A program made the position numbers and the translations under genes. Below are positions 34,250 through 61,350 of a stretch of DNA of 64,000 nt, in pieces (the first letter of the stretch is position 1; each line of letters opens with the position of its first letter). The stretch is taken from the NCBI GenBank assembly GCA_965230295.1, contig OZ246001.1:2816001-2880000 (forward strand), in the 5' to 3' direction. A model generated the notes under the pieces. The model was not told the DNA's origin and did no database searches. It saw only the letters and a program-made list of their open reading frames with translations. This DNA is from Marinicella sp. Lineage in GTDB: Bacteria; Pseudomonadota; Gammaproteobacteria; Xanthomonadales; Marinicellaceae.

Positions 34250-35761
34250 ATGAAACAAATAACCAAACAGAGCAAGTCCATCTTCATTATCTTATTGATC
34301 GGTATCAGTTTTCAACTCATTGCCACTGAGTTAAACAAAGGGCAAGGTGGAACGGGATTGACGATCAACAACATCAGAAATTTTGATATAGATCAGAATA
34401 CTGTCATTAAAGAAGATGGGGTAGAGATCCCCGAAATCAGGGGACAAGGTGGTACAGGATTTAAAATTCGTTATCGCGTTGGCGGTGATGTGAATCCGGA
34501 TGTCACCAATGGCACTTTAGAAGAGATTGATTTGATCAATACACATAAAGGTCCAATCACATCGCTAGACCCATTCAGGATTTTTAATGTCGATGCATTG
34601 ATTACTTCGGATACGTTCTTTGACGATGATTTGGTGTTTGCAGACATTGTCATGGGCGATGAATTGAAGTTAAGTGGTTTTGTTGATAGTAACTCAACTT
34701 TAATAGTAAGTCGGGTAGAAGCCGATAACGACCCATTGGTTGAGTGGAAACTTTCTGGTTTTGTGTCTGCATTGAATGCATCACAATTCAATATACAAAA
34801 CCAAGTTGTGTTGATCGGTGGTGTCTTGCCAGACGACTGTGATTTGGGTCTGGCCGATGGTGATTTTGTAGAAATAAAAGCCACGCCTGATCCTATGTTT
34901 ACTAATGGTTCGCCATTGACAACAGTGACTCAAATTGAATGTAAACCTCAGGGCATCAATACCCTGCCTGGAGATGTCGTTCCTGTGGCATTAGAAGGTT
35001 TGGTTGATTTTGAAGACATTGACAACAGCAGTTCCTTCACCATCGCTGGCCAGACAGTCAACGTAACAGGTACAACCATTTATATCAATGGGGAAATTGA
35101 TGACATTGTTATCGGTGCCAAACTAGAAGTTGAAGGTTTGATGAACACCACCACTTCTGTTATTGAAGCCTTGAAAGTTAAATTCAAAGAAGTGCGATTC
35201 AGGTTTGAAGAACCTGTCCAGCCTGGTGATGTAAATGTCGGTGAATCAATCCAATTGTTTGGTCAAACCATTTTAACGACACCACAGCTTCGAGATGAAG
35301 ACGGGATCATAGGTTCTGGACTGGCAGTGGTAACTCAGGTTGAAGTTCGAGGGTACAGTGACAGCGATGGAAATTTGTATGCAACCAGGGTGAGAGAAAG
35401 GGGCAACCCTGATCCCAATGATGTTAGGGCAGACGGACAAATTACAGCCATCAACGATCCATTCATAGAAGTCAATGGCGTGGTTGTAGATTCATCTTTT
35501 AGCTTATTCTTTGACCTCAATGGTTTGCCAATCAATGCCACTGATTTTTTTAGTCAAGTTGCTGTTGGGACAGAGGTCGAAGTTCAAGATGCGATGGTGG
35601 ATGAGAACACCAACATCATTTCTGGAGGTGCGATCAGTATAGATGAAGCAGATGATTTCAACAGAGTCAATGGGCCAGAAAAAGCAGGTGTCACAGGTGG
35701 CCTGGGTATTGGGACTGTGACCAGTAAAAAAGACACCATCTTTGCCAATTCATTTGAATAA
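34250..35761 (+). CDS. Secreted multi-DUF5666 protein with DTIFANSFE tail
   Basis: RBS GGAGA, signal peptide, repeated G..V.V.G.....A..I OB-like units, two GQGGTG motifs. Confidence 0.78.
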   Translation: MKQITKQSKSIFIILLIGISFQLIATELNKGQGGTGLTINNIRNFDIDQNTVIKEDGVEIPEIRGQGGTGFKIRYRVGGDVNPDVTNGTLEEIDLINTHKGPITSLDPFRIFNVDALITSDTFFDDDLVFADIVMGDELKLSGFVDSNSTLIVSRVEADNDPLVEWKLSGFVSALNASQFNIQNQVVLIGGVLPDDCDLGLADGDFVEIKATPDPMFTNGSPLTTVTQIECKPQGINTLPGDVVPVALEGLVDFEDIDNSSSFTIAGQTVNVTGTTIYINGEIDDIVIGAKLEVEGLMNTTTSVIEALKVKFKEVRFRFEEPVQPGDVNVGESIQLFGQTILTTPQLRDEDGIIGSGLAVVTQVEVRGYSDSDGNLYATRVRERGNPDPNDVRADGQITAINDPFIEVNGVVVDSSFSLFFDLNGLPINATDFFSQVAVGTEVEVQDAMVDENTNIISGGAISIDEADDFNRVNGPEKAGVTGGLGIGTVTSKKDTIFANSFE

Positions 35762-38533: not shown

Positions 38534-39097
38534 TTATGGCGTTTTGATGCGCAGCAAAAAAGGTAAATCAAATCTGCTTTCCGTGTCTTCAAAAGGCACC
38601 CAACCTGGCGGGTTGGGTCTGGCATCAAAGAACCCGCCTCCAGCAGGATAGGAATCGCCTACTGGACTGCCAGAGATACCACAAGAACCCGTGGCATTTT
38701 CAAGCACAATGGCATATTGATCTCCGGCATTGACCAGCAAATTGCCAGGTATGCCAAAGTACCTGAATTGGGTGACCAAGTTACTGACCCTGCTGCCTCT
38801 GATTTTTTTGTTGGTAAAAGTCAAACTTCCTGGCTCGCCCAACACCACGTCATTGATTGAAATGTTGAGTCGACCGTCGGCACAACTGATTGGCAAATAA
38901 ACACCCTTCAAGATACCAGTGGTGCTGATGGTGACTGTTTGTGCCAGTTTTTGATCACTGCTGCCACCTATGGCTAAAATGGCACTGTTGTCAATATTGG
39001 GTTGCAATTGATCAATGATTTTTGCTGCTTGACCCGTACCTGAGAATCCAATAGCCAGCCCTCCGGCCATGACCAATGTGTTAACTATTTTTTTCAT
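38534..39097 (-). CDS. Secreted single-domain beta-sandwich protein (resembles domains of PEP-CTERM / choice-of-anchor proteins)
   Basis: RBS AGGAGC before ATG 39097, signal peptide; DQ.Q, LAQT.T, AGDQYAIVL, Y.AG, DL.F pattern. Confidence 0.65.
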   Translation of the reverse strand: MKKIVNTLVMAGGLAIGFSGTGQAAKIIDQLQPNIDNSAILAIGGSSDQKLAQTVTISTTGILKGVYLPISCADGRLNISINDVVLGEPGSLTFTNKKIRGSRVSNLVTQFRYFGIPGNLLVNAGDQYAIVLENATGSCGISGSPVGDSYPAGGGFFDARPNPPGWVPFEDTESRFDLPFLLRIKTP

Positions 39098-39129: not shown

Positions 39130-39585
39130 CTGGTTGGGTTGTGTTGTACCTGGAGAACTGTCGGACAGTTCGACTGGCGCAGGTAATGAAAGCATGGTGG
39201 TTTACCTGAAAGGTAATAAGCCTTGCTTGAATACCGTAGCGCGTGCACTCGGTTAGGCAGATCATGTAAGAATGGCGATTTGACAAAGTCAAGAAGCCTT
39301 GATGGAATGATCGATAAGCCGTGAAGCCTTGCTGGTCGCTTCCGCATCCTGCTCACGCGACAGACCTACATCCCTGTAGGCCAGCCAGAGAGTGCAAGCC
39401 CGAAGTAGTAAGCCATGTCCGACGAGGCCGCTTTCACTTTTGTCAGGAATAGACATCCGAAGTGAGCAAACGCGAACTTGAGGTCAAATAAGAGTTAGAA
39501 GATGCTGGTTTTTTTGTGCAACAAAAAAGAAGGCATTTCTAACCATTCTCCAGAATGAAGTCCCAAGGACATTCATTATATAGTT
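39130..39585. repeat. Structured modular non-coding element, copy A
   Basis: Shares at least six modules with 58815-59460 in inverted orientation, e.g. 39250-39324 vs revcomp 59350-59424, 64/75 identical without gaps. Confidence 0.85.
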
Positions 39586-39689
39586 CGCAATGTCGGTTAA
39601 ATTTGTGACATCGGTTGTGCCTGTTTGAATGTTCTTTGGGTACTGCAATCTGTTATTATCATGTCATTGATGACCAAGATAAGGATACT

Positions 39690-40163
39690 GTGAGCACATT
39701 CCTACTCAATGCCAAAGCCAAAGAAAACACACAAAAATGTCTGCTCCGTGGGCTGTATGCAGTGTTGATGTTGGTGATTGGTCTGAATTCTTCTTTCAGC
39801 AAAGATGAGGACCAGAACCAACTCAGTCCAGTGGTTACAGTGACCAAAAACGCCTATCAGGCCTATGCGGTCCGGAAGCTGGTCATTGATGCCATCATGG
39901 CTACCCATGATGTGAGAACTCAATTGGTAGATCAATGGCATGCAAAGGGTCATTATGATGACAAGGCCATCAAAGGATTGATGGCTGGTCAATCGATCGA
40001 CACGGTCACCGGTGTGGTGACGATTGATCTGACAACAGTTTCTGGTGCTTTTCAGGAGGGTGATGTGGTTGCCTTACACCCTGAAAATGAAGCCGGTTTT
40101 TTTACTTGGCAATGTCGCAGCAATGTCAGTTCAAATAAGGTTCCTGGTTCATGTCAAAAATGA
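39690..40163 (+). CDS. Pilin-like protein lacking a canonical prepilin cleavage site
   Basis: RBS AAGGA + GTG; hydrophobic helix; TGVVTIDL...WQCRSNV...VPGSC resembles the C-terminus of 36323-38479. Confidence 0.6.
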   Translation: MSTFLLNAKAKENTQKCLLRGLYAVLMLVIGLNSSFSKDEDQNQLSPVVTVTKNAYQAYAVRKLVIDAIMATHDVRTQLVDQWHAKGHYDDKAIKGLMAGQSIDTVTGVVTIDLTTVSGAFQEGDVVALHPENEAGFFTWQCRSNVSSNKVPGSCQK

Positions 40164-57521: not shown

Positions 57522-57606
57522 TGGTGCCGAGGGCGAGAATCGAACTCGCACTTCCGAAGAAACCGGATTTTGAATCCGGCGCGTCTACCAATTCCGCCAC
57601 CCCGGC
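57522..57606 (-). tRNA. tRNA-Leu(CAA)
   Basis: GCCGGGGTGGCGGAATTGGTAGACGCGCCGGATTCAAAATCCGG...GAGTTCGATTCTC...CACCA; anticodon CAA, long variable arm, encoded CCA. Confidence 0.97.
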
Positions 57607-58698: not shown

Positions 58699-58755
58699 AT
58701 TTTAAGGGTCAACTAGGAACTTGTAAATTTGAGTTATTTGATTGATACAATCTAT
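58699..58755 (-). promoter_or_regulatory. Probable OxyR-type site plus sigma70 promoter of dps
   Basis: Minus strand ATAG-N7-CAAT-N13-TTTACA-N17-TAAAAT. Confidence 0.6.
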
Positions 58756-58814: not shown

Positions 58815-59460
58815 TCTATAGTCAAGGAATGTTCTTGGGGCTCCATTCTGGTTCATGGTCTGACAGGTCTTCATATTTGCTGCGCAAATAAACCGACCTT
58901 TACAGACTATTGTTTGAGCAGTTGCTTCGCACTGCATGTCTGTTCCAAACAAAAGTGAAAACGACTGCTTACATGGATGTAAGTATGCAGCGATAGCAGG
59001 CAGGAATTGTTCCCAACAGTTCTCTGCATTCACCCCGTCCTGGGGATCGATGCGGTAGCTGCCGAGGCGAACATGACTTGCTACCTCGCACGCACTACGG
59101 CATTCAAATCGGGCTTCTTTATCTTCGATAAAACCGCCCAACTTTCATTACCTGTGCTATAACGCCATTCACATAAGGTTTCTTGACTTCGTCAAATCAC
59201 CATATGTTCATTGGCTATTCTCTTCGCCTCTGATTGGCTTACATGGAAGTAAGTCCTCTGAGGAGGCAGGATGCCGGTATCAGAGGTGACTACATGGATG
59301 TAGGTCTGCCGCGATAGCAAGGAGCGATAGCGGCCGCAACATCAATAGCTCACGGCTAATCAATCATTACATCAAGGCTTATTGACTCCGTCAAACCGCC
59401 ATGATTGCATGATTTGCCTAACCGGCTCGGCGGGTCAAGCTGCTCAGCAGCTTTCCTTTC
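58815..59460 (+). ncRNA. Structured modular non-coding element, copy B; candidate long ncRNA with CsrA/RsmA-type GGA hairpins
   Basis: TATAGT at 58817-58822, five GGA-loop hairpins on +, terminal hairpin AAGCTGC-TCA-GCAGCTT plus pyrimidines; homologous to 39130-39585. Confidence 0.6.
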
Positions 59461-59463
59461 TGA

Positions 59464-61350
59464 CTAAAAGTTGAAGGTTTTGGCCACTCTGAAGCCCAAG
59501 CGTGGATCAGTGAAGTCATTTTCTGCTTTCAGCCGATGATGGATGCGATATTCCTCAATGGCACTGCCCCAATTTCCGCCGCGAATGACCCTGCTTTCAC
59601 AACCGCGATTGACCCAGGCAGAGCCATCATTGGGTGCCCTCGTGTAGGAGTCATGCCAACAGTCATCAACCCATTCCATCACATTGCCACTGAGGTCATG
59701 TAAACCCAATAATGTTTTGATAAAAGTACCGGCAGGAGCAGGGCCCCAGAAGCCATCTTCGTAATTGCTGAAACCTTCACGCCATCTGATGCGGCTTTTT
59801 TTGAACTTGTCTTTGGCACCTGAGAAGTTGCCCCAAACTTGTGTGGGTTCTTCATTGCCCCAAGGGTACAAGGTGTTGTTGTCAGCACTGAGCAGGAATT
59901 CAAATTCGCTTTCTGACACCAAGCGATAATCTTCACCCGTTGCGGTACTGAGCCAGGCCGCATAGGCTTGGGCATCATTCCATGAAACATGGATCACTGG
60001 TAAATCCGGGCTGGCATTCTTGCCTAAATAGTCATGACGCCAGTTGACGTTGAATTTATTTTTGAATCGACCGGTCCTTTCATCATATATTTTTGCTCGA
60101 TTCGATTTTTCAGCCGTGGTTTTGTATTGTGAGGCATTGATGAATTTTTCAAAGTCTCCTACCGTGATTTCAAATTTACTGACGGCAAAGCCATAATCTA
60201 TGTTGACCAAATGACTTGGGCGTTGGTGCTTGGGTCCCGTTTGGCTGCCCATGAAGAAATCTCCCATCGGCATCACCACCATGGTAGGGCCTGTTTGGTT
60301 ACCAATGTTCAATAAATCATTGAATTCATCGCTGACATCAAATGGCCCATAATTTTCAGTTTTGTTGTATAAGGTTTGGTATCCAGTTAACTGACCGGCT
60401 GCTATTTCTAATTCACCCAATGCATCAATCATGTTGGCTGCCCGTGACATGTCTAAATTATTGATGGCGGCATAAAACTGTTGATCTAAATACGCGAATC
60501 GATTCTGTTTTTGGGTCTGGATGTCATTGATGGTTTTTACAGTGATGTTGTGATTGCCATCCAACTCATTCATGCGATCAACTTGCTGGTCAGCGATGCT
60601 GAAATCCAGTTCTTGTGCTGCCCTGAGTGCCGATTCACTTAACTGTTCCAGAACTTGGGTTTTTAGCGCATTCAAAGGTTGGTAGTTGGCGTCCATATTT
60701 TCTGCCACAATCAAAGTGTGCACAGCATCTTTTTGATCATCTTCATACAATCGGTTGTTGTTGATGTGGGTTGAGATTTCATCGCTCAGCCTTTCTAAGG
60801 TCACAATGACGCTGATGCGATCGGTGTAAGTTTGTATGCGGCTGTCATTGGCATCAATTGACTTCAATCTGGCTGTCAGGGCAGTCAGGGTTCTGGCATC
60901 ATAATCCCTGATGGCTTGTTCAGCTTGAGCATACAAAGAAGCATGTACTGTGGTTAACAATTCGTCCACTTCAGCAGATTCAACCCCCAGCTCTTTGGCC
61001 TTAAGGAGGTAAACCAAGGTGTTTTGGTTTTCTGGGAAAAAATCATGATCTTGTTCATGAGACAATCTGGCTAATTTCAGTAAATCATCAAGTGTCAGGT
61101 TGCTCAAGTCAAAGTCTTCTTTATTGGTTAACCAATCTGGAATTTCAACTTGTTCTAATACAGCTGTGGGTAATATTTTGGGCGCATCTACGGTATTGGG
61201 CGCGTTGGATTCAATCGCTGTCAGATTGGTGACAGGTTGGGTGGTGGAAGCGGCAAATACCTGGTCATGTGTTCTGAGGTAGTACAGACAGTAGACCAAG
61301 CCGAAACCCAGGAGCAACATACTGAGTTCTTTGAAGCTGATTACCTGCAT
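59464..61350 (-). CDS. Membrane-anchored protein with C-terminal FGE-sulfatase/SUMF1 (C-type lectin fold) domain
   Basis: F.MGS, FEITV..F..F, PV..VSW.DA.AY..W, GL.D.SGNV.EW, VIRGG.W, GFRV; the FGE catalytic Cys pair is not evident. Confidence 0.85.
   Translation of the reverse strand: MQVISFKELSMLLLGFGLVYCLYYLRTHDQVFAASTTQPVTNLTAIESNAPNTVDAPKILPTAVLEQVEIPDWLTNKEDFDLSNLTLDDLLKLARLSHEQDHDFFPENQNTLVYLLKAKELGVESAEVDELLTTVHASLYAQAEQAIRDYDARTLTALTARLKSIDANDSRIQTYTDRISVIVTLERLSDEISTHINNNRLYEDDQKDAVHTLIVAENMDANYQPLNALKTQVLEQLSESALRAAQELDFSIADQQVDRMNELDGNHNITVKTINDIQTQKQNRFAYLDQQFYAAINNLDMSRAANMIDALGELEIAAGQLTGYQTLYNKTENYGPFDVSDEFNDLLNIGNQTGPTMVVMPMGDFFMGSQTGPKHQRPSHLVNIDYGFAVSKFEITVGDFEKFINASQYKTTAEKSNRAKIYDERTGRFKNKFNVNWRHDYLGKNASPDLPVIHVSWNDAQAYAAWLSTATGEDYRLVSESEFEFLLSADNNTLYPWGNEEPTQVWGNFSGAKDKFKKSRIRWREGFSNYEDGFWGPAPAGTFIKTLLGLHDLSGNVMEWVDDCWHDSYTRAPNDGSAWVNRGCESRVIRGGNWGSAIEEYRIHHRLKAENDFTDPRLGFRVAKTFNF

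Follow-up and report, generated by a model that had tools for sequence, protein, structure and literature searches.

Strand-specific covarying hairpin cassettes in a dispersed, modular repeat family of Marinicella

Introduction

REPINs are hairpins of ∼70–110 nt with compensatory changes, which occur as singlets and as ordered tandem clusters within mosaic composites (PMC3116915), and they are thought to act as single-stranded DNA (ssDNA; PMC3116915 and PMC6006769). Ssn/NTS hairpin repeats are described in a part of PMC11893778 as cut in the form of ssDNA; they number in the hundreds, are oriented and are recognised by a small dedicated enzyme. Here we describe a hairpin-bearing repeat of Marinicella sp. 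(Pseudomonadota; Gammaproteobacteria; Xanthomonadales; Marinicellaceae), found in a window of 64,000 nt (GCA_965230295.1, contig OZ246001.1, positions 2,816,001 to 2,880,000, forward strand). An earlier note on this window, made from the sequence alone, had pointed to hairpin ‘arms’ with short triloops in two inverted copies of the repeat, copy A and copy B, and had proposed that they act as ssDNA.

BOX, ERIC and Correia-type repeats are modular and noncoding, with variable internal hairpin modules between fixed end modules. The repeat described here has a comparable build. It is best explained as a family of mobile repeats, noncoding and non-autonomous, that extends through the genus and has copy B as one of its full-length members; a minimal element of ∼150 nt with fixed ends carries a variable set of optional modules. 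One type of module is a long imperfect hairpin, present once, in tandem or not at all, and the arms form its conserved tips. These hairpin units have a covarying, strand-specific structure, are spread over five bacterial families and come and go as discrete pieces, and the carrier element is oriented with respect to replication.

REP, REPIN and NTS/SRM hairpin repeats each led to a dedicated ssDNA enzyme. The obvious partners (reverse transcriptase, RAYT and Ssn-like GIY-YIG nucleases) are here absent from the genome or paired with other repeats, so that the arm family is a handle for finding a further structure-specific nucleic-acid enzyme or, should the arms act as RNA, an undescribed RNA-binding factor.

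Arm hairpins and their fold

The arm consensus reads GGYGRTTT, stem, GNA or ANA loop, stem, AAGAARCC. The pattern GGYGRTTT-N9-21-ADAARCC has six matches in the window, compared with 0.09 ± 0.30 in 200 dinucleotide-preserving shuffles; one of the six, at 34859, lies outside copies A and B, and two arms with GCA loops are detected with a looser pattern only. Genome-wide the arm pattern gave 127 matches and its reversed-pattern control 9; for a tighter pattern the numbers were 94 and 1. All seven arms listed in the earlier note, four on the minus strand of copy B and three on the plus strand of copy A, were found with the loops it gave, and recurrent strand-specific arm hairpins are confirmed as real.

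Every arm sits at the apex of a larger imperfect hairpin, ∼65–70 nt in all, here called the arm unit. Its outer part consists of P0 (GNNC/GN'N'C), a bulged A, P1 (GGYA/URCC), a symmetric purine loop (UGAA/UGAA, UGGAA/UGGAA or CGGAG/CGGAG) and P2, followed by the arm itself with GGY/RCC, two purine-purine mismatches, a U.G pair, UU/AA, a variable stem and the triloop. The helices covary, but the purine-purine loops, the U.G pair and the GNA or ANA triloop are held constant on one strand. In an alignment of 24 units, taken from 14 genomes, RNAalifold places 18 pairs, and compensatory double changes occur in 13 of these. On the arm strand 91.4% of the cells are paired. The covariation score there is 0.612; shuffles gave 0.166 ± 0.021, with none of 500 reaching the observed value, and a slid-partner control gave at most 0.117. 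The mirrored structure on the complementary strand has 81.1% of cells paired and a score of 0.477.

Pair types agree with covariation in setting the two strands apart, as the earlier note had claimed when it placed G.T wobbles and purine-purine loops on the arm strand only. Read on that strand, the 24-unit alignment holds 51 G.U cells, or 29 once the fixed U.G pair is set aside, and 7 A.C cells. Among 35 unique arms collected by strand-symmetric detection, the inner stems contain 186 Watson-Crick pairs, 6 G.T and no A.C; at the third outer pair there are five T.G and one C.A. The position adjoining the purine loop is T.G in 31 of 36 cases and T.T in 5, with T-A in none. The flanking helices, which lie outside the search pattern, have 193 G.T against 93 A.C with a strand-symmetric aligner. 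Recent point mutations in the terminal hairpin of the element are near symmetric (5 against 4, counted by eye), which argues against pure mutation bias behind the strand asymmetry.

Folding of both strands, a check that the earlier note had suggested, favours the arm strand unit by unit under either parameter set. With RNA parameters it folds better in 143 of 153 unique units (−28.3 versus −21.7 kcal/mol) and with DNA parameters in 136 (−12.7 versus −11.0 kcal/mol); 82 of these units are from the source genome and 71 from other genomes. Minimum free energy of the whole element picks no strand, with −220.1 (arm strand) versus −212.7 kcal/mol for RNA and −104.6 versus −108.1 kcal/mol for DNA.

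A modular repeat family

The arms of copy B lie in the interval 58857–59424, inside a 794-nt gap between two minus-strand genes. The borders of copy B are common to ∼9 full-length copies with 94–96% identity (blastn). In contigs of two public runs, depth over 58824–59456 rises from ∼16 to 200–1700, 10–100 times that of the flanks, and loose contig ends at 58823 and 59456–59458 fix these borders. Joints in the contigs match other genomic variants of the repeat, and no empty site for copy B occurs in the contigs of the two runs. Copy A aligns to the reverse complement of copy B with 68% column identity and large indels, and inverted-repeat arms I1–I3 and I6 link the two copies.

The source genome is complete, in one contig of 4,008,074 bp. 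A blastn search of it with copy B gave 159 high-scoring segment pairs, which fall into 85 loci. About nine of these are full length; the others keep both ends and lack internal blocks. A crude gene call (3257 genes, 89% coverage) puts all 85 in intergenic DNA, and their flanks are unrelated to one another. The 39 + 16 junction pairs of the element show no target-site duplication and no terminal inverted repeat, its ends sharing only AGGAA(T/A)G (6–7 nt), so that both hallmarks of a classical miniature inverted-repeat transposable element are lacking; no conserved target was seen beside the carrier ends.

Across 33 aligned variants the same blocks are recurrently and combinatorially absent (element coordinates 147–243 at 22 loci, 268–396 at 15, 416–466 at 17 and 416–586 at 8), and the cassette holding arm 3 of copy B (270–334) is absent as an exact piece in 5. 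Nineteen loci that blastn gives as a 37-nt right end are complete minimal elements of ∼150 nt, with both ends and no arm. Two loci of the minimal type carry one extra piece of 66 nt, and this arm unit is the sole difference between minimal and one-arm copies. Because the piece is present or absent in otherwise minimal elements, arm units behave as optional cassettes. They also stand in tandem at a spacing of 59–66 nt, as in genome G021 with three consecutive units. An IS91-like gene fragment is present in four copies in a genome of another family (G085, family f7); an arm unit of ∼70 nt interrupts one of them and is lacking from the other three, which means that the unit inserts or deletes as a discrete piece.

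CGTG is found 3′ of the unit in 20 of 24 rows of alignment A3, and also in carriers without a unit. Comparison of unit-present with unit-absent junctions gave no exact insertion rule, as there was no consistent duplication and only the adjacent CGTG recurs; this CGTG may be a target or cleavage motif.

The G085 fragments correspond to a multi-copy IS91-like transposase C-terminus (L093 230–420 on contig G085:C32, compared with L112, L110 and L108). Three of the four copies hold a second kind of mini-insertion, a 24-nt in-frame hairpin (CCCGGATCAAGTCCGGG...), and the fourth is without it.

The features of the two copies are as follows (positions in the window).

58824..59456, GGA hairpins on +, arms on −: copy B, full-length noncoding modular repeat of 633 nt, from blastn borders and read depth
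58200–58670, −: ferritin-like (Dps-type) gene, bordering the gap that holds copy B
59464–61350, −: gene with an FGE-sulfatase domain, the other border of that gap
58866..58898, −: arm 4 of copy B, GGTCGGTTT-ATTTGC-GCA-GCAAAT-ATGAAGACC, recurring at >30 loci
59093..59157, −: 65-nt hairpin cassette holding arm 3, with P0 GCAC/GUGC, P1 GGUA/UGCC, tandem G.A loop UGAA/UGAA, P2 and the arm
59112..59138, −: arm 3 of copy B, GGCGGTTT-TATC-GAA-GATA-AAGAAGCC, pattern match
59177..59201, −: arm 2 of copy B, GGTGATTT-GAC-GAA-GTC-AAGAAACC, outer pair U-A in place of C-G
59376..59400, −: arm 1 of copy B, GGCGGTTT-GAC-GGA-GTC-AATAAGCC, pattern match
59437..59453, +: right-end terminal hairpin of the element, AAGCTGC-TCA-GCAGCTT (its 5′ hairpin when read on the arm strand), terminator-like on +
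58968..58983, +: GGA hairpin 1 (CTTACATGGATGTAAG)
59238..59253, +: GGA hairpin 2 (CTTACATGGAAGTAAG)
59290..59303, +: GGA hairpin 3 (CTACATGGATGTAG)
39151..39580 (borders approximate), −, arms on +: copy A, diverged inverted copy of the copy B element, from pairwise alignment
39196..39222, +: arm of copy A, GGTGGTTT-ACCT-GAA-AGGT-AATAAGCC, outer T.G wobble
39274..39298, +: arm of copy A, GGCGATTT-GAC-AAA-GTC-AAGAAGCC, pattern match
39504..39534, +: copy A homologue of arm 4, GCTGGTTTTTTTGT-GCA-ACAAAAAAGAAGGC, from pairwise alignment

The layout of the arm-3 cassette is kept, with covariation, in other genera. The stem of the terminal hairpin covaries across genomes as well (GAGCTGAT/ATCAGCTC, GTGCTGC/GCAGCAC, AAGTTGC/GCAACTT and GGCCAG/CTGGCC).

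Distribution among genomes

Pieces of the element are found in 20 of 23 congeners and in none of 17 genomes outside the genus (blastn), and the arm pattern occurs in other families at low copy number. A covariance model of the unit (R1) matched 32 of 151 sampled genomes of the order, in the five families f1, f7, f8, f9 and f10. By group, matches were found in 11 of 12 genomes of the source genus, none of five from other genera of its family, 9 of 17 in f7, 7 of 17 in f8, 3 of 15 in f9 and the one f10 genome; families f2–f6, f11 and f12 gave no match, nor did 150 other families of the class. The f10 genome (G033) has a whole element of ∼220 nt homologous to that of the source genus, with a 5′ hairpin of altered sequence that is still paired (GACCCGCC..GGTTGG), one arm unit, CCGTGGTCG, a covarying 3′ hairpin and CCCAAGAAC.

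At the gathering threshold Rfam reports only a tRNA in the window and only tRNAs on 15 loci of other genera, and at E ≤ 10 only chance-level CRISPR-DR47, miRNA and snoRNA matches. A description of the motif was not found in full-text literature searches, including one with the string GGCGGTTT + AAGAAGCC, which could miss a species-specific report. On these Rfam and literature results the repeat family appears to be undescribed so far. In annotation it is advisable to mask its ∼85 loci, and the 100 or more arms, as part of a repeat family and not to take them for local regulatory signals.

Orientation in the chromosome

Cumulative GC skew places the replication origin at ∼1.70 Mb and the terminus at ∼3.84 Mb, with dnaA at 1.722 Mb; 61% of called genes are co-oriented with replication. 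The arm strand has lagging-strand polarity at 65 of the 85 loci (binomial p = 1e-6); it does so at 32 of 46 loci of at least 200 nt and in 18 of 19 arm-less minimal copies. The orientation bias of the carrier is thus 76% overall and 95% for minimal copies. In two complete genomes of family f7, with origins set by dnaA and sampled GC skew, the split for the unit is 20:8 in G077 (16:5 by locus) and 17:17 in G264 (14:14 by locus).

Neighbouring genes leave no such mark. In gene-tandem contexts the element is sense 20 times and antisense 22 times, the lagging bias holds beside leading-strand genes (20:7) and lagging-strand genes (13:2), and 25 sites lie between convergent and 18 between divergent gene pairs. 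That orientation follows replication and ignores the direction of neighbouring genes points to a DNA-level process, and this bias of the carrier offers an independent hint at the mode of insertion of such elements. The bias is unlikely to stem from selection against stable hairpins on the lagging-strand template, the arm-less copies being the most biased. A role of the right-end hairpin as terminator was also rejected, as 6 of 19 minimal copies lie between divergent genes and the hairpin lacks a U-tail in other genomes. No conserved promoter was seen in the element.

Comparison with described systems

Arm units resemble REPINs in being short noncoding intergenic repeats, with units of 65–70 nt, compensatory changes in 13 of 18 pairs and tandem spacing of 59–66 nt, and this hairpin unit likewise occurs as singlets and ordered clusters. 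They differ in having no cognate flanking RAYT, the presence of which does not track arms across genomes. Their halves are not simple inverted REP copies and hold conserved purine-purine mismatches and wobbles, because of which the arm fold is strand-specific. Unlike REPINs they nest as cassettes in a larger carrier with fixed ends.

The genome has one Y1 HUH gene, RAYT-like and encoding 187 aa (Y1_Tnp E = 5e-10, HUH motif HVHLL). It belongs to a REPtron at G000:C1:1669221–1669836 (L013 1260–1880, gene at L013 1300–1863), flanked by inverted REPs of its own. This REP family (GGAGCG-stem-ACTTCAGT-stem-CGTT) has ∼30 copies with covarying stems, several of them in REPIN-like inverted doublets, and shows no replication bias. 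In a wider contig collection the only RAYT relatives were four distant Firmicutes loci.

With Ssn systems the family shares oriented hairpin repeats, and the source genome itself holds four small stand-alone GIY-YIG genes of 96–117 aa (G000:C1:1617935–1618153, 1943992–1944213, 3082108–3082326 and 840634–840858). Three of them have, on either side, dispersed hairpin repeats of their own that bear the SRM-like signature GTCATTC...GAATC; since each of these genes has signature repeats at its flanks, the genome probably contains several Ssn-like pairs of ssDNA nuclease and repeat. The arms differ in lacking this signature. None lies within 600 nt of the four genes, the GIY-YIG repeats are unlike arms, and no GIY-YIG gene is flanked by arms or stands beside the element.

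Like BOX, ERIC and Correia-type repeats, the element varies internal hairpin modules between fixed ends. It is distinguished from them as another sequence family without terminal inverted repeats, by explicit covariation, by strand asymmetry and by replication-linked orientation. As for the R''/R' boxes of integron attC sites (RYYYAAC ... GTTRRRY), no conserved GTT/AAC pair was seen by eye at the helix foot in alignment A3, and no integrase search was made; GTTAGGC and GCCTAAC, each present once, are one site seen from its two strands.

Searches of the source genome for further enzymes found no RVT_1 (PF00078) reverse transcriptase, with a control that detected the family in 3 of 14 reference genomes, no TnpB (zinc-ribbon domain search) and no IS110. 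An IS91 Y2 transposase was likewise not matched there, by a profile that was also silent as a control in every reference genome.

One other genome (G264:C1, L212) has an intact IS200-type TnpA with its right-end hairpin at 588–1100 and an arm-like unit at 1365–1451, the only HUH adjacency seen. We regard it as probably coincidental; the unit lies ∼270 nt past the insertion sequence end and is one of six identical copies.

Interpretation and rival explanations

We propose, at about even probability, that the arm units are hairpin cassettes of a REPIN-like kind, which a putative enzyme acting in trans recognises in single-stranded form, probably as ssDNA. As cis-acting recognition hairpins they would be needed for the propagation of the element itself. 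The cassettes would be folded as a single strand, most likely ssDNA, and the structure-specific enzyme that would handle it does not appear to be a reverse transcriptase, the RAYT of this genome or one of its Ssn-like GIY-YIG nucleases. We infer ssDNA as the folded form and a single protein that binds the arms. C-GNA-G triloops and Y-GA-R tandem mismatches are especially stable in DNA. We lean to ssDNA over RNA because of these loop and mismatch types, because the element lacks a conserved promoter and stands in no fixed relation to transcription units, because a repeat that spreads without a reverse transcriptase must be selected through its own DNA, and because its orientation is coupled to replication. 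Of the ssDNA structure suggested in the earlier note there remain a recurrent, structured motif selected on one strand and an orientation tied to replication; its retron-like and lagging-strand versions are not supported.

Several results weigh against this proposal. G.U at ∼7–12% of pairs together with tandem G.A loops fits RNA at least equally well, and the strand difference per unit, 6.6 kcal/mol with RNA and 1.7 kcal/mol with DNA parameters, suits RNA. Copies and units within a genome are related by descent, so that the counts and p-values given above overstate independence. The replication bias is a property of the carrier and not of the arms, since it is strongest in arm-less copies (18 of 19), is not seen for arm units outside the carrier (2 lag versus 4 lead) and is missing in G264 (17:17). 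With nascent-lagging polarity the arm strand is, moreover, the leading-strand template and not the fork-exposed lagging-strand template; where bias exists (65 of 85 loci) it is thus the least exposed strand, opposite to the IS200/IS605 rule, and the lagging-strand hairpins that had been envisaged are not supported in that form. The earlier note had also looked to a reverse transcriptase or HUH gene co-occurring with the motif, and we searched for one without success. No enzyme partner was found among reverse transcriptase, RAYT, TnpB and GIY-YIG candidates. Arms do not flank the RAYT-like gene, which has the different REP family at its flanks. Y1_Tnp occurs in ∼21 of 32 arm-positive genomes and in 112 of 151 overall, which is no enrichment, and the arm-rich genomes G021 and G019 have none. 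No gene enclosed or flanked by the repeats resembles a nuclease or transposase, and at 39 loci of other genomes the neighbours of the unit are unrelated housekeeping genes.

An RNA-hairpin role has been proposed for ERIC, BOX or REP elements in mRNAs. For the present arms a corresponding role is possible though the less probable reading: they would be transcribed by read-through or from the element, and serve as protein-binding or stabilising hairpins. Covariation with many G.U pairs, the fixed U.G and tandem sheared G.A loops are typical of functional RNA, the stability gap between strands is larger under RNA parameters, and a weak promoter-like site (59438 to 59409, 9/12 matches) leads into the element on the arm strand. 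This site is not conserved in the f10 homologue, however, and the element disregards transcription units, with the even sense and antisense split noted above, 18 of 85 loci between divergent genes and only 2–3 sense cases among 12 loci of other genomes (hand-judged from open reading frame calls). Transcription of the arm strand would run head-on to replication at 65 of 85 loci, a selfish repeat without reverse transcriptase could not be selected through RNA alone, and no Rfam family matches. The opposite strand might instead be the functional one, as a CsrB-like sponge RNA with GGA hairpins, the arms being the mere complement of its helices. Up to three CCUACA-N-GGAUGUAGG hairpins per element, with covarying stems and a fixed GGA in the 4-nt loop, are presumably close to the CsrA SELEX (in vitro selection) consensus; the genome has a CsrA gene, and the + strand is co-directional with replication and ends in a hairpin followed by TTTCC. 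We nevertheless judge this highly improbable, as the wobbles and purine loops of the arm helices sit on the other strand and the GGA hairpins show no wobble asymmetry (24 G.T versus 21 A.C), are optional, and are absent from the minimal element and the f10 homologue. There is also no conserved promoter, the terminal hairpin has no U-tail in other genomes, and Rfam yields no CsrB/Rsm match even at E ≤ 10.

Movement of the element as top-strand ssDNA by the Y1 HUH transposase (RAYT) of the genome, in the manner of an IS200/IS605-type PATE or a REPIN, is unlikely, though slightly less so than a sponge RNA. The element does resemble IS200/IS605 derivatives in lacking terminal inverted repeats and target-site duplications, in its hairpins near the ends, in its replication-coupled orientation and possibly in the CGTG beside the unit; one Y1_Tnp gene is present, and the arm complement TTGAC-TTC-GTCAA resembles the RAYT-flanking GTTGAC-TTCA-GTCAAC. 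But the RAYT has its own REP family in a REPtron arrangement, and its distribution among genomes, given above, does not follow the arms. The element has unrelated hairpins at its two ends, no conserved target stands at the carrier ends, and the lagging-strand template carries the complement of the arm strand, either of which may be the active strand. The source genome has no TnpB, no TnpA or TnpB with matching ends was found, and no pair of elements encloses such a gene. The retron-like version in the earlier note, by which a reverse transcriptase copies RNA of the GGA strand and the arms take their fold within the cDNA as multicopy ssDNA, is close to refuted. Its sole support is the placement of arms and GGA hairpins on opposite strands. 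The complete genome has no RVT_1 match, the 85 copies are dispersed with variable module content and form no single msr-msd locus between a1/a2 inverted repeats, and Rfam gives no retron or other family match.

Within the proposal of ssDNA cassettes, a more specific version is possible but tentative. The arm unit might be a new kind of self-propagating, strand-specific hairpin cassette of ∼65–70 nt, inserted beside CGTG by an ssDNA-processing enzyme outside the groups known to move hairpin repeats (RAYT/TnpA-Y1, Ssn and integron integrase). Such cassettes would be gathered by the ∼150-nt carrier, itself a second element with an orientation tied to replication.

Neighbouring genes and other observations

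Copy A lies between an open reading frame without Pfam match (38534–39097, −) and one with a pilin domain (39615–40163, +). As these are divergent, the copy sits in their promoter region and could affect both genes. Just outside copy B there is a sigma-70-like promoter, TTTACA-17-TAAAAT, with 10/12 matches (58699–58727, −); it is upstream of the ferritin-like gene, and copy B is upstream of the promoter. Hairpins of the CCUACA-N-GGAUGUAGG type are also present at G000:C1:3114817–3114972.

Genes for tRNA were seen 0.2–1.3 kb from arm-bearing repeats in the window (57525–57606, −) and at two loci of other genera (L089 2209–2282 and L081 2264–2337). In genome G069 an arm unit lies ∼180 nt downstream of a tRNA gene, on the same strand.

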